Positions 28,949 to 33,924 of a stretch of DNA of 64,000 nucleotides are shown piece by piece. The translations under genes and the position numbers were made by a program. Under the pieces are notes generated by a model. That model was not told the origin of the DNA, ran no database searches, and saw only the letters and a program-made list of their open reading frames with translations. Source of the stretch: Myxococcales bacterium (GTDB lineage Bacteria > Myxococcota > UBA727 > VGSZ01); assembly GCA_023248635.1 (NCBI GenBank), contig JAHFED010000002.1, positions 41,723 through 105,722 of the forward strand, given 5' to 3'. The number at the start of each line of letters is the position of its first letter. Within the stretch, counting starts at the first letter, position 1.

Positions 28949-29772
28949 TCAGCGAAGAAGAACCGTTGCCCGATGCCTTGCGCGCGGACCGGCGGACCTT
29001 CGTCGAAAAGAACATCTACGACGCCGCCGACTGGTACGACGTCGACTACGCCGCCTACCGCGGGGAGTTCACCTTCTATCGCTTGCTGGTGGCCCGCCAC
29101 GCCCGCACCGGCGTCGTCGTCGAGCTGGGGGCTGGCACGGGACGTCTGACCTTGCCCTTGTGTGAAGACGCCAGGCTGCATGCGGTGGAACCGTCGGCCT
29201 CCATGCGCGGGCGACTCCTCGACAAACGCGCCAAAGCCGGCTTCGACGACGCGCGTTTGTGCGTCGAAGACGGCGTCGCTGCCGCTTTCGTCGGCCCTGA
29301 TGCACCCGTCAAGCTCGTGATCTTTGCTTTCAACGGCGTGCTGCACCTGTCGTCGCGCGACGAGCTGCGCCGGAGCTTTGAGCACATCCGTCGAAAGCTC
29401 GACGACGACGGCAGCTTTGCCCTCGATCTCACTCCACCTTATTGGGAGACCATGCTGCGCGGCTCTGTCCCCTGGGGACGCATCGACGAGCGCGTGCATC
29501 CCCAGAGCGGGCGGCGTTTTCTCACCTGCGATCGCTCCAGCTACGAGGCAGCCACGCGCACCACCCGCATCGACATCCGCTACGCCTACGCCGACAACAA
29601 CGACGACGACGGCGTGCAGATCACCCTGCGCCAGCACATGTGGACCACGCCCGAGATCTTGCAGGCCCTGCACGACACCGGCTTCGTCGTCGACTCCTGC
29701 TTCGGCAACGTCGACCTGTCGCCTTTTTCCGAAGGTTCACCGCGGCTCTTGGTCAGCGCGACGAAGCGTTAG
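28945..29772 (+). CDS. Class I SAM-dependent methyltransferase
   Basis: Motif I VVELGAGTGRLTLPL and post-I AVEPS. The only in-frame start near the domain is TTG 28945, which overlaps the plsC TGA (TTGA). The start is uncertain. The upstream part of track ORF 28102.. is an out-of-frame read through plsC. Confidence 0.7.
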   Translation: MISEEEPLPDALRADRRTFVEKNIYDAADWYDVDYAAYRGEFTFYRLLVARHARTGVVVELGAGTGRLTLPLCEDARLHAVEPSASMRGRLLDKRAKAGFDDARLCVEDGVAAAFVGPDAPVKLVIFAFNGVLHLSSRDELRRSFEHIRRKLDDDGSFALDLTPPYWETMLRGSVPWGRIDERVHPQSGRRFLTCDRSSYEAATRTTRIDIRYAYADNNDDDGVQITLRQHMWTTPEILQALHDTGFVVDSCFGNVDLSPFSEGSPRLLVSATKR

Positions 29773-31468
29773 GAGGCTCGCTGTAGAGCAGCGCAGCTTT
29801 GCTGAGCAGTTTGCCTCCGTGCTTCTCGACGGCGGCCTTGAAGGCTTCGCGGCCGGTGGGTCGCAGCAAGAGGCCACCCAGATCCCGATCGAGGGTCATG
29901 GCACAGACGACGACGGCGCGCCCCAGCTCGCTGACCGGTTTCTGGTGCACCGTCAGCGGGCCGGTGAGACCTTTGGCGACGTCGCGGGCGGCGCTCTGCT
30001 GGGCCTTCAACACGCGCTCGATCCCCAAGAGACCGGTGCGGCGGGCATCGGCGAAGAGCTCGTCGACCAGCTTGGCCATGGCCTCAGCCTGAGGAGCGGA
30101 CCGCGCCATCACGGCGTCGTCGTAGAAGGTGCGTCGTCGGGCCCGACGCACTGCTGCCGGCCCGGCATCTCCGCTGATCGGCTTGGCGAGATCGATCAAG
30201 GCGACGACGCCAGCGGCCAAGCGTTCGGCGATGGCGCTGCCTTCGTCGACGCTGCGCGCACCCGACGCCGCCCGCGCCTGCAGGCTCGCCGCCGACATCA
30301 CGGCAACCTCCTTGCGCTCCTCCGTGGGCACTGTGGACGACGACAGCGACGGCCGCGGCACCAAGCCTGCGAGTCCTTGATCGCGCGCATCCACCGGTGC
30401 CTGATCGAGGAAGGGCCCCAACCCTCGCACCACGGCGGCAACCAAAGGCCAAGGTTTGGCAAGTCGCTGTCCGTCGTCGCCGCGGGCCAGGGTCTTGATG
30501 ATGTCGCCGCCGGCACGGGGCAGCAGGTCGTCGTGCTTCTTCAGGATCTCCTTGAGTCGCAGCAGATGGGTCGAGAGCAGCGCGTGGGCCTCATCGAGCC
30601 CGAGGGCTCGCAAGCGTTCCCCCGATACCGGATCCACCCGGTCGAGCACCGCAGCGCACAAGGCAGCCAGCACCGCAGCGTCGTCGTCGACGGCCAGGGT
30701 CACGTCGCGGGCCCCGCGCTCAATCTTTGCGAGCTCCACCGCTCGCTCCACGAGGCGCACGACCGCGGGAGCACGTTGCAACAGGGTCTGCCGCGCCGGC
30801 GTCGGGATCAGCGCAGCACCCAACACCCGACCGGCAGCAACCTGGTCGACGACGATGGCCTGCAACATCGACAGGAGCGCAGGCGGTCGAAGGGTGGCCT
30901 CGAGGACGCCGATGATCGACGACAGGCGCGCGCGCGCCTTGGGGAAAGCCAGGTGCAGCTCGACGCTCTTTTGCACGCTCAACAACAACGCATCGGTCTG
31001 CGGCTCGGCCACAAAGCGCTCCAACGCCGCCGCCGTCGCGAGCTTCACCAGGCGCTTGCCCACCTCGGGAGCGGCGATTTTCTGCTCGAGCAGCGTGCGG
31101 GCAGCGTCGACCGGATCGATACCGGCGTGGCTGGCGGGTCCGGGCCCCTGCATCTTTTGCCAAGCGCGCTTCTGCTTGGTGCCATTGGCCGCCTTCGAAT
31201 CGAAGCCGAGCTTGAATCCCATCTTCTTCGCGAAGGCCGCGGCCTCGACCTTCGACGGACAAGTGACGACGACGCCGGCGCCGATGGGACCGCTGGCGGG
31301 CAGCACCGGGTTCAGATCGGCGATGAGCGCCGCCATGCGCGGGTCTTTGAAGACGACCACCGCGACGTCGACGACGGACTCTTGGCCCGCCACCCGGATT
31401 TTCCGGCGTTGCAGGTCCTGCGCTTGGGGCTGCTGCATCGGCGTTCCAATGGAAAAATGCGGCCTCAT
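29753..31468 (-). CDS. Hypothetical protein C of the orphan operon: LysM-like N-terminus and a large all-helical body
   Basis: No signal peptide. The N-terminal IRVAGQESVVDVAVVVFKDPRMAALIADLNPVLPASGPIGAGVVVTCPS fits a LysM-like pattern. The start is uncertain (ATG 31468, TTG 31495 or ATG 31438). Its 3' end overlaps the convergent methyltransferase gene by 20 bp. Confidence 0.55.
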   Translation of the reverse strand: MRPHFSIGTPMQQPQAQDLQRRKIRVAGQESVVDVAVVVFKDPRMAALIADLNPVLPASGPIGAGVVVTCPSKVEAAAFAKKMGFKLGFDSKAANGTKQKRAWQKMQGPGPASHAGIDPVDAARTLLEQKIAAPEVGKRLVKLATAAALERFVAEPQTDALLLSVQKSVELHLAFPKARARLSSIIGVLEATLRPPALLSMLQAIVVDQVAAGRVLGAALIPTPARQTLLQRAPAVVRLVERAVELAKIERGARDVTLAVDDDAAVLAALCAAVLDRVDPVSGERLRALGLDEAHALLSTHLLRLKEILKKHDDLLPRAGGDIIKTLARGDDGQRLAKPWPLVAAVVRGLGPFLDQAPVDARDQGLAGLVPRPSLSSSTVPTEERKEVAVMSAASLQARAASGARSVDEGSAIAERLAAGVVALIDLAKPISGDAGPAAVRRARRRTFYDDAVMARSAPQAEAMAKLVDELFADARRTGLLGIERVLKAQQSAARDVAKGLTGPLTVHQKPVSELGRAVVVCAMTLDRDLGGLLLRPTGREAFKAAVEKHGGKLLSKAALLYSEPPNASSR

Positions 31469-31502
31469 GACCGCATTTTTCAAGAGAGAGGACAATCAGG
31501 GA

Positions 31503-32794: not shown

Positions 32795-32814
32795 GTCGTT
32801 CCGAGTGGAACGAC
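32795..32814 (-). promoter_or_regulatory. 8-bp stem hairpin between genes A and B of the orphan operon
   Basis: gtcgttcc-gagt-ggaacgac, perfect stem with a 4-nt loop. It sits in the 157-bp A-B spacer and has no U-tract. Confidence 0.3.
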
Positions 32815-32838
32815 CCCTGTTCCGCTGTGGGCGCTGCC

Positions 32839-33924
32839 TCAGGCCAAGCCGATCGCTGGGGCGCCGACCAAAGCGCCCAGGCCGCCGACGACGCCGCCGA
32901 GGTCGCTGTTGGAAGGTCCAGCTCCGAGCAGTGCGGCCACCGGGTCGGCGACGGCCGCGCCGCTGCTCGTCGCGCCCCCCGCCATCGTCATGCCGGCGCC
33001 GATGAGGGGGAGAAGCACGGGGAGCAGGGGAACGATGGGCAAGAGCACCTGCGCACCGGGGATGGCAGCGATGGCCGTCGTGATGACGCCGGTGATGGCC
33101 GCGATGGCCAAGGGGTTCTGCAAGATGGGACCGAGGGAGCTCAGCGCAGGTCCCAGGAGTCCCAGAGCGCCCTTCATCACATCCCCAACCGGGTCCGCGG
33201 GAGCAGCCGTCGTCGTCGTCGTCGGCTCCACTGCCTGCATTGCCTCGGTCGACGTGCTCGCGTGCGCCGCAGCGATCGCCTGCATGTCCGCCGCGCACGC
33301 GGGGCTGTCGCGCAGCACCACCATGATGATCACCGCCGATTGCGCCGAGAGGCTCCAGCCCTTCTGGTCGAGGGCGTATTTCACCTCGGGATAGCGCTCG
33401 GCCACGCGGGGATCGCTGCGCAGCTGCTCGAGCGTGCTGGTGAGTTGTTCAAGAGAGCTGTGAGCAGCCCGGCTGTGGTCGAGGTGCATCTCAGGGGTGC
33501 GGGCGCCGCCGCCGACGTCGTGGCTGAAGCCCGTGGCTCCGTCGAGAACAAGCCGACGATCGACGCGCAGGTGATCGACCGGGGCGCAGACCGCGTGAGC
33601 TGGGGCGGAGTTGACGCCGGACACACGGGGCTTGTTCGCCAACGCGGAAAAATCCCGGAGCAAAGCCGGGCCGGCGACGAGGTGCGCCTCGAGCTCGCCA
33701 AACCATGGTGCGAGTTCGACGCGGGGAGCGACGCTCGCCGAGGCGTCCAAAAAGCGAGCTGGGGGACGGGAGTCGTGGGTGGCGGCGGCGACGCTGTCGA
33801 TGGCCTCGATCCCTCGCACGGTGACCTGGCCAGGAGCACGCTGTGCGTCGACGTCGACACGCCGAGCCTGCATTCCAAGCGTATCGACGAGAGAAGTGCT
33901 CGGTATCGCAGTGAAGGTGGTCAT
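32839..33924 (-). CDS. Hypothetical protein A of the orphan operon: soluble N-domain and a bilobed hydrophobic / Gly-zipper C-terminal region
   Basis: ATG 33924 is preceded by AGGAG (gcaggagctcccaATG). No signal peptide. It contains LAIAAITGVITTAIAAIPGAQVLLPIVPLLPVLLPLIGAGMTMAGG followed by a Gly/Ala-rich tail. Confidence 0.6.
   Translation of the reverse strand: MTTFTAIPSTSLVDTLGMQARRVDVDAQRAPGQVTVRGIEAIDSVAAATHDSRPPARFLDASASVAPRVELAPWFGELEAHLVAGPALLRDFSALANKPRVSGVNSAPAHAVCAPVDHLRVDRRLVLDGATGFSHDVGGGARTPEMHLDHSRAAHSSLEQLTSTLEQLRSDPRVAERYPEVKYALDQKGWSLSAQSAVIIMVVLRDSPACAADMQAIAAAHASTSTEAMQAVEPTTTTTAAPADPVGDVMKGALGLLGPALSSLGPILQNPLAIAAITGVITTAIAAIPGAQVLLPIVPLLPVLLPLIGAGMTMAGGATSSGAAVADPVAALLGAGPSNSDLGGVVGGLGALVGAPAIGLA

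Follow-up and report, generated by a model that had tools for sequence, protein, structure and literature searches.

Translocators of type III secretion systems (T3SS), such as YopB/YopD, PopB/PopD and IpaB/IpaC, which are paired with the chaperones SycD (LcrH), PcrH and IpgC, respectively, carry no Sec signal and combine an N-terminal region followed by a coiled coil, a bilobed hydrophobic segment and a C-terminal amphipathic helix. In Myxococcus xanthus, the T3SS* cluster encodes several homologues of LcrH, neither a needle nor a translocon is known for it, and the effectors are unknown (PMC10433427; PMC12075869). T3SS of this myxobacterial type, which have neither secretin nor needle (PMC3459982; PMC10433427), are conserved and basal, and were placed by Abby & Rocha at the root of all injectisomes (PMC3459982). 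Here we describe three neighbouring minus-strand genes of an uncultured myxobacterium, A, B and C, located in a 64-kb stretch (the window) of a Myxococcales bacterium (contig JAHFED010000002.1, positions 41,723-105,722; Table 1). Paralogues of A and B are encoded beside LcrH-like genes, beside sctU or within a T3SS cluster, which makes the products of A-B-C candidates for exported parts of a myxobacterial T3SS. In the reading that we prefer, to which we assign a probability of roughly two in five, A and B would be chaperone-dependent substrates of the secretin- and needle-less T3SS of myxobacteria, A inserting into a membrane, B assembling, and C acting as their partner.

A, B and their relatives share with the described translocators the lack of a Sec signal, the N-terminal region preceding a coiled coil, the bilobed hydrophobic segment (present in A and in the single-chain members), the C-terminal amphipathic helix and, at paralogous loci, the vicinity of SycD/LcrH-like tetratricopeptide repeat (TPR) genes, of sctU or of a T3SS cluster. 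Unlike the translocators, they show no similarity to the SseC/YopB, YopD, IpaC/SipC, IpaB or HrpK families, the hydrophobic part and the C-terminal helix reside on separate polypeptides (A and B, respectively), the associated T3SS type is the one without secretin and needle, and A-B-C has no linked TPR chaperone or apparatus gene, the 561-aa basic protein C standing in the place of the chaperone. A-B-C would be a variation on translocator-plus-chaperone modules that is unusual in its gene split, in its uncoupling from apparatus and TPR chaperone and in its partner of new fold, and would represent a further step beyond the paralogous loci. If the inference holds, this family, which is confined to Myxococcota, occurs beside chaperone genes and sctU and combines a translocator-like hydrophobic core with a fixed C-terminal helix, provides concrete candidates for the exports of the ancestral T3SS and could also reveal how needle and translocon functions came about.

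Table 1. Features of the A-B-C locus, with positions counted from the first nucleotide of the window.
Feature	Position	Strand	Remarks
Gene A, 361 aa	32839..33924	-	degenerate N-domain, ~100-aa middle domain, hydrophobic C-terminal region
Bilobed hydrophobic block, A residues 270-318 (LAIAAITGVITTAIAAIPGAQVLLPIVPLLPVLLPLIGAGMTMAGG)	32971..33117	-	Kyte-Doolittle
8-bp hairpin GTCGTTCC-ACTC-GGAACGAC	32794..32813	-	A-B spacer, seen in sequence and fold
Gene B, 392 aa	31503..32681	-	N-domain, QTPExP linker, coiled coil, FED helix, helical hairpin, C-terminal module
N-terminal domain, B residues 1-115	32337..32681	-	Gly-rich, moderately hydrophobic, starts MSxxxGN...
QTPESP motif, B residues 128-133	32283..32300	-	predicted disordered linker
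'FED' helix motif, B residues 243-273 (ILSNPNLAFEDMVFLLMGAVIKSSEKEIK)	31863..31955	-	
C-terminal module, B residues 349-392 (TESRSERFEALKESLQKISEMQQALSNSMNALHQTAQNAIGNIR-COOH)	31506..31637	-	
13-bp perfect hairpin GAAAAAUGCGGUC AUGA GGCCGCAUUUUUC	31452..31481	-	B-C spacer
Gene C, 561 aa, pI 9.9	29753..31438	-	LysM-fold N-terminus, invariant loop, two helical domains
Class I S-adenosylmethionine (SAM)-methyltransferase	28942..29772	+	Pfam Methyltransf_25; convergent with C

A and B as members of a Myxococcota superfamily

A search of 1.84 billion representative proteins with a profile of B returned 257 matches (clusters) at E<=1e-3, most of which have no more than the FED helix and the C-terminal module in common with B. 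The FED helix (consensus I-L-x-[ND]-P-x-L-x-F-E-D-M-..., 'NPxLSFEDMxxxxM') lies upstream of the module and is found in most of the 137 motif-bearing relatives; within the B family, L246, P249, L251, F253, E254, F258 and L260 are invariant, and in A a possible degenerate counterpart was recognized by eye only. The C-terminal module, of about 44 aa (consensus ESRxLxFExLKxxMQKLSQMQQALSNVLNTMHQxAMNAIRNI[KR]-COOH), always constitutes the extreme C-terminus of family members, and that of B matches a hidden Markov model (HMM) of 27 diverse members with an E-value of 1.7e-21. Scanning 185,579 species-representative genomes for the module yielded 37 loci, nearly all from uncultured Myxococcota, with at least three to four paralogues per metagenome-assembled genome (MAG). 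Ten distant relatives gave no Pfam or NCBIfam match above noise.

Over their first ~110 residues, the A and B families are homologous (hhalign probability 99.4%, E 1.8e-21), and both are related there to the corresponding domain of single-chain relatives (99.6% for A and 100% for B). These relatives (P0102, P0106, P0110, L036 and others) carry all elements on one polypeptide, namely N-domain, FED helix, a bilobed hydrophobic segment rich in Pro and Gly, and the module, and their central block is matched by the hydrophobic block of A (95%, E 4e-8, figures that composition bias may inflate). Because of the shared N-domain and the match of the A block to the single-chain relatives, A and B look like halves of one ancestral protein and, judged from their sequences, they are diverged paralogues of an undescribed Myxococcota superfamily. 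The ancestral chain would have consisted of an MSxVxN... N-terminus, a Gly-rich N-domain, the FED helix, the bilobed hydrophobic segment and the terminal helix. In the lineage of the window, A would have retained the hydrophobic segment but not the C-terminal helix; B would have retained the helical bundle and the module, its hydrophobic segment being replaced by a coiled-coil hairpin.

The preliminary description of this DNA, made from the sequence alone, had regarded the trio as an orphan group without a nameable family. The absence of a family name is borne out by Pfam, NCBIfam and PDB, none of which provides a match for A, B or C; with Pfam and NCBIfam, fragments of the proteins also gave nothing meaningful, even at E<=10. 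The placement of these genes in an undescribed family is supported. The term orphan is apt only in the sense of unannotated, since homologues exist for B (28 close homologues, mean column identity 38%), C (38, mean column identity 62%) and A (at least five, at 37-50% identity). None of them has a protein name, and their sources are metagenomes or MAGs with the label Myxococcota or 'Deltaproteobacteria'.

The A-B-C order is conserved as well. It recurs in about ten independent Myxococcota MAG or metagenome contigs and stays collinear in many relatives, down to 28-44% identity. Besides the window, A-B-C or B-C was found in L001/2 (on a 1.4-Mb contig of GCA_030685175.1), L004/5, L006, L007, L009/L010, L016, L079 and L082; the distant L009/L010 pair is 28% identical to the window copy in B and 44% in C, L079 and L082 carry A-B-C on metagenome contigs of 64-70 kb, and in L003 B-C occurs without A. 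Gene C is specific to this type of locus and always lies directly downstream of B.

Paralogues in T3SS contexts

When superfamily loci are clustered by their neighbours, several recurrent contexts emerge, one of which is A-B-C. A second context type comprises members of 249-307 aa that have neither N-domain nor hydrophobic segment (L014, L040, L041, L043 and L044). In a third, arranged alike in about 20 loci, a member of ~335 aa is flanked by two TPR genes, whose best NCBIfam model is TIGR02552 (SycD/LcrH), about 45 bits ahead of other TPR models (E 8e-24 and 2.5e-20, profile positions 3-133/136).

A scan with these TPR proteins retrieved 31 loci. On a Myxococcales MAG contig (L062; partial copies in L063, L073 and L077), TPR genes of 45% identity lie inside a complete T3SS cluster, in which genes for SctL-like, SctN, SctP/FliK-like, SctQ, FliO-like, SctR, SctS, SctT and SctU proteins are followed by two small open reading frames (ORFs), a TPR gene, the gene of a 207-aa protein, two TPR genes and sctV. 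SctN, SctQ, SctR, SctS, SctU and SctV of this cluster score above the curated cut-offs, and SctT (138 bits) below its cut-off of 163. In three other lineages (L058, L074 and L060, the last from MAG SP234), sctU (362-366 bits against a cut-off of 358) is directly upstream of a TPR gene and a family member, with a short unannotated ORF between sctU and the TPR gene in L058 and L074. These sctU-linked members are 359-423 aa long, contain FED helix and module, and hold the position that the 207-aa protein occupies in L062.

The T3SS-cluster protein itself is 207-214 aa long (L062 10564-11187; L063 4915-5559; L077 3329-3955), and a scan for its orthologues gave three loci. Aligned C-terminus to C-terminus, it matches the C-terminal module with an hhalign probability of 88.7% (E 2.6e-6), and the HMM of the module finds it at E 0.004 in a database of 11.8k sequences.

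Several other properties of these paralogous loci are recorded here in their own right. The 207-aa protein contains the motif EPxLPGxDATPxxLAxYxKxxKxY, which matches PDB pancreatic-polypeptide (PP-fold) peptides at E ~1e-3, probably as a convergent polyproline-helix hairpin. In L038, a 269-aa family member is immediately preceded by an ORF (88-1460) that resembles the FliK/SctP (Flg_hook) domain at the C-terminus of the L062 T3SS protein (tblastn E 6e-7). Between the member and the second TPR gene of sctU-linked loci there is a conserved Cys-rich protein (...CxRC...GGCCSS...CGYxGxxGCxL...CxxFYC...; L058 11937-12992, L059 9989-10957, L074 9985-11223) without an NCBIfam match. The 249-307-aa members (e.g., L044 7889-11520) are always followed by a trigger-factor-like gene without ribosome-binding domain, and in four of the five loci (not in L014) they are preceded by the gene of a SurA/PpiC-like peptidyl-prolyl isomerase.

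Proposed mechanism

According to the preferred reading, the superfamily would consist of chaperone-dependent exported substrates with a function equivalent to that of translocator or axial proteins. A and B would be kept in solution in the cytoplasm and exported by way of the N-terminal region that they have in common, upon which A would insert its hydrophobic hairpin into the target membrane and B would assemble through the bundle of its FED and C-terminal helices, as a scaffold or as a partner of A. C would serve A and B in the cytoplasm as a dedicated partner or adaptor, in lieu of the TPR chaperones of the paralogous loci. This last step is the weakest of the model, and C is proposed for it because it is basic, about three times more constrained than A and B, specific to the locus and always located just downstream of B. 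The contrast between fast-evolving acidic proteins (isoelectric point (pI) of 5.4 for A and 4.95 for B) and a slow-evolving basic one fits exposed or exported proteins with a constrained intracellular partner.

The hydrophobic block is the element on which membrane insertion by A is predicted. In agreement with the preliminary description, which had noted a bilobed, translocator-like block near the end of A, a segment of 49 residues with a Kyte-Doolittle peak of 2.25 over 19 aa was located, which together with the lack of a Sec signal constitutes a translocator-type feature. The block is the most conserved part of A and belongs to a Pro/Gly-rich hydrophobic C-terminal region that follows the conserved middle domain and has no C-terminal module. 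Also as previously noted, the N-termini of A, B and C show by inspection neither a hydrophobic h-region nor a twin-arginine motif.

The N-terminus of the window copy of A is peculiar. Its N-domain (residues 1-103, 33616-33924, minus strand) is degenerate, with a deletion of about 14 residues in an intact ORF, and the conserved GGFxGGALQFxDxxSxGH stretch has been lost. A frameshift was considered as the cause and dismissed, as none of the other frames, read by eye, was better.

Several observations weigh against the T3SS substrate reading. Searches for T3SS genes covered the 64-kb window and up to 10 kb around related A-B-C loci. In the window, tblastn with a myxobacterial SctN/Q/R/S/T/U/V set found nothing, as the preliminary description had stated for apparatus genes, and an HMM search revealed no SycD-like TPR gene; nor did any of the A-B-C loci examined have a T3SS core or SycD-like TPR gene within 10 kb. 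A metagenome scan with C led to only four loci, which again have the A-B-C arrangement and are free of nearby T3SS or TPR genes. An adjacent class II (SycD/LcrH-type) chaperone gene is thus found only at paralogous loci, and even there the TPR matches remain below the trusted cut-off of TIGR02552 (84 versus 104.8 bits). One paralogue type is flanked by SurA- and trigger-factor-like genes, so that the contexts are not uniformly those of a T3SS, and the link from B to the 207-aa protein is transitive, the direct profile comparison being not significant. The N-domain, which would mediate export, is degenerate in the window A to the point that the B-family HMM does not detect it, and in B it is modelled with low confidence (predicted local distance difference test (pLDDT) of 35-55 in AlphaFold2). 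T3SS chaperones are small and acidic, whereas C is large and basic, and its role is purely inferential. Finally, A, B and their relatives fail to match any known family of translocators or of tip, filament or needle proteins in Pfam, NCBIfam and PDB profiles or, for B, in Foldseek. The translocator-like character that had been proposed for the trio is therefore supported indirectly, by the contexts of paralogues, and not by apparatus or chaperone genes near A-B-C.

The lack of apparatus and chaperone genes near any A-B-C locus suits a different, in our view unlikely, explanation, namely that A and B are the two components of an alpha-helical pore-forming toxin or bacteriocin that is independent of a T3SS, with A contributing the hydrophobic hairpin and B a ClyA/YaxAB/Hbl-like partner. 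Such a toxin would be released by lysis, in vesicles or by another route, C would be accessory or regulatory, and the T3SS contexts of the paralogues would reflect ancestry. Gram-negative alpha-pore-forming toxins, e.g., ClyA and XaxAB, also have no signal peptides. As in ClyA, YaxAB/XaxAB, AhlABC and Hbl/Nhe, helical-bundle components that are paralogous to each other would be encoded side by side, one of them with a hydrophobic element, and the combination of this element with a long helical hairpin is also that of the alpha-pore-forming toxins. The fast evolution of A and B accords with a toxin too. Faint NCBIfam matches were obtained to alpha-xenorhabdolysin subunit A (E 0.47) and, in the relative P0113, to Hbl L1 (E 0.002), but these are far below the family cut-offs (125 bits for the match at E 0.47), and no ClyA, Yax, Ahl or Hbl structure is among the top Foldseek matches of B, which are BAR and HlyD (E>=0.07). 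Unlike in the known toxins, to which there is no significant profile or fold match, a shared Gly-rich N-domain and a fixed C-terminal module are present. The locus contains no lysis cassette and no immunity-like membrane protein, and C is too conserved and too large for an immunity protein. Should the T3SS link fail, the trio would still be a conserved lineage-specific system with a predicted membrane-active component and a new fold.

Likeness to needle and other axial proteins

The preliminary description had aligned the C-terminus of B with the polymerization helix of the needle protein PrgI. This alignment is not supported: hhalign to PrgI/MxiH/YscF gave probabilities of 0.75% for the B family and 0.3% for the C-terminal module, using a needle set in which PrgI matched PDB 2lpz exactly and the MxiH and YscF sequences were entered by hand. 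B and C-terminal fragments likewise matched none of the T3SS families of Pfam at E<=10, the needle SctF (PF09392) included. SctF proteins are of ~70-90 aa and encoded in T3SS clusters; B, with its 392 aa, is five times longer, is encoded in a window without T3SS genes and, like the module, has no detectable relation to them. Translocator profiles (PF04888, PF05844, IpaC_SipC and IpaB) found nothing in A, B or ten distant relatives, a faint HrpK1 match (E 0.023) in a member from L071 being the sole translocator-type signal.

Needle- or rod-like signals are confined to the small T3SS-cluster protein, where they are weak but mutually consistent. From its PxxP turn to its C-terminus, the 207-aa protein aligns weakly with the needle (hhalign 64%, E 6e-5), and the only two Pfam matches of its relative in L063, both sub-threshold, are Flg_bbr_C (PF06429, E 0.0036) and T3SS_needle_F (PF09392, E 0.095). 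In common with axial proteins (SctF of the PrgI/MxiH/YscF type, EspA, flagellar rod and hook), family members have a conserved helix that runs to the C-terminus after a helix and an NP or PxxP turn and, as in flagellin and EspA, conserved terminal helices that enclose an inserted variable part. The module may descend from the helix of an axial protein. A bolder version appears doubtful to us: the superfamily would supply the missing needle-, tip- or translocon-equivalent exported parts of the ancestral T3SS as LcrH-chaperoned proteins, and its module would be distantly homologous to the needle/rod polymerization helix. In that version, the family would have expanded in uncultured Myxococcota, and A and B would be a split, two-component form of a membrane-inserting device, with C as its adaptor of new fold instead of a TPR chaperone.

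Structure of B

In line with the coiled coil that the preliminary description had noted in B, the AlphaFold2 model shows the C-terminal half of B as three long helices (225-247, then an NPNL turn, 253-313 and 317-391) with pLDDT values of 75-93. Upstream of it, Q128, T129, P130, E131 and P133 of the linker motif (QTPExP) are invariant in 27 sequences, and this motif could be a site of processing, modification or binding.

The hairpin of the B model resembles other long hairpins, including that of Vipp1 (target-normalized template modelling (TM) score 0.71, probability 0.99, E 0.57) and BAR. This resemblance raises the alternative that A, B and C form an intracellular scaffold or remodelling complex at the inner membrane, of PspA/Vipp1/ESCRT-III or BAR-like type, which is never exported. 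The missing signal peptides of the three proteins would be explained, C is conserved and basic as might be expected of a binder of lipids, nucleic acid or peptidoglycan precursors, and the neighbouring genes are of housekeeping nature (PlsC, methyltransferase and, in relatives, Hsp70). However, none of the Foldseek E-values is significant, and the PDB matches of B (BAR, HlyD and Vipp1 hairpins, E>=0.07) were rejected as evidence for being generic. A scaffold would also leave unexplained why paralogues repeatedly occur with LcrH-like chaperones, sctU and a T3SS cluster, why there are three to four fast-diverging paralogues per genome and why the module is fixed at the extreme C-terminus, and is considered improbable. 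At the sequence level, PDB returned nothing but coiled-coil noise for C, for the C-terminal module and for B, whether B was used as a single sequence or as a profile.

The ...IGNIR tail was also considered as an encapsulin cargo peptide and discarded, there being no shell gene and the module being a 44-aa helix. Long variants of B exist (P0005, P0017, P0019, P0020, P0022 and P0027; e.g., L004 10001-11686), in which a repeat insert of ~180 aa separates the N-domain from the coiled coil. The insert is made of 18-residue GGxGxD-like repeats with the look of an RTX/beta-solenoid; an RTX assignment was abandoned as P0020, P0017 and P0027 have no HemolysinCabind (PF00353) match and only a weak one to DUF3060.

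Structure of C

The AlphaFold2 model of C (pLDDT 84) comprises a LysM-fold part of ~60 residues (about residues 10-75, beta-alpha-alpha-beta) and a helical remainder, as the preliminary description had anticipated for both. With LysM domains of PDB baseplates and of BFVD proteins, Foldseek superposes 50-61 residues at a root mean square deviation of 1.4-3.3 A with probabilities of 0.96-1.0; the E-values of ~0.5-3 are due to the shortness of the domain. Pfam LysM (PF01476) does not match the N-terminus of C at E<=1. The sequence contains an invariant loop, GFxLGF...NGTxxxRAW. For the helical body of ~450 residues, Foldseek against PDB and BFVD finds no structural relative, and the model suggests that it is a new fold.

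Residues ~10-70 of C have the same fold as the LysM of baseplates of phages and contractile injection systems (CIS) and of peptidoglycan-binding proteins. The best matches are the baseplate proteins 8kea_J, 9gtp_M and 7b5h_AK (probability 0.77-1.0), along with many phage LysM proteins, and a truncated tyrosine-integrase gene (39399-39908, plus strand) lies 5.5 kb from A-B-C. One could thus imagine the trio as a phage or CIS remnant, with C as a LysM baseplate protein and A and B as tape-measure-like or tail-associated proteins. We consider this highly improbable: the match spans only ~60 residues at E ~1, the locus and related loci have no sheath, tube, baseplate, capsid or terminase genes nearby, the G+C content is flat across the region, and the locus is part of a chromosomal synteny (L28, S41 peptidase, Hsp70 and PurH) that is kept across divergent MAGs. 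C also differs from LysM proteins in its lack of a Pfam match and of a signal peptide and in the fusion to ~450 helical residues.

Gene calls, neighbouring genes and spacers

The translations of A and B coincide exactly with those of the preliminary description, and the ribosome-binding sites that it had reported are AGGAG, 7 nt 5' of the A ATG, and GGAG, 8 nt 5' of the B ATG. For C, the end at 29753 was correct, and the start, given as ~31468, is moved to an ATG at 31438 (MQQPQAQ..., 561 aa) by an alignment of 27 homologues, which also rules out a TTG at 31495. The G+C content at third codon positions (GC3) of the three genes is 0.78-0.85, in a window whose overall G+C of ~66% is flat, without compositional break at the locus. 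In comparison with the closest relative, L001, the ratio of nonsynonymous to synonymous substitution rates (dN/dS) amounts to 0.55 (A), 0.42 (B) and 0.18 (C) (ranges 0.42-0.55 for A and 0.13-0.18 for C), all below 1. GC3 and dN/dS indicate that A, B and C are real genes that look expressed and are under purifying selection, and not chance ORFs. An HMM search of the window found no further paralogues of the family or of C.

The SAM-methyltransferase gene adjoins C also in L001, L003, L004, L006, L008 and L016, lies 8 kb away in L009 and is absent within 10 kb in L079 and L082; it may be part of the A-B-C system.

Each of the two spacers contains a hairpin. The 8-bp hairpin reported earlier in the A-B spacer is present, but this spacer folds no better than shuffled sequences (z 0.18), which makes its significance doubtful. 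A much stronger hairpin, absent from the preliminary description, was found between B and C, where the 70-nt spacer has a minimum free energy of -24.3 kcal/mol (z -4.6; none of 200 shuffles as good). Flanked by A-rich and U-rich stretches, this 13-bp hairpin could be a terminator (possibly bidirectional) or an attenuator of transcription into C; if it attenuates, B would be more abundant than C.

Further genes of the window lie on either side of the locus. On the plus strand, a PSCyt3/DUF1588 protein followed by a protein with a Tat signal is encoded at 34162-37696. On the minus strand, a 1510-aa ORF (23941-28473) contains about 20 tandem Cys/Asp-rich repeats (CDxxDxxCDGSxVDxFxDxDGDxxPDCxDxDDDxDGDPD), which by eye are thrombospondin type 3-like, and a C-terminal tail of Cys, a hydrophobic stretch and RRR that resembles a MYXO-CTERM sorting signal.

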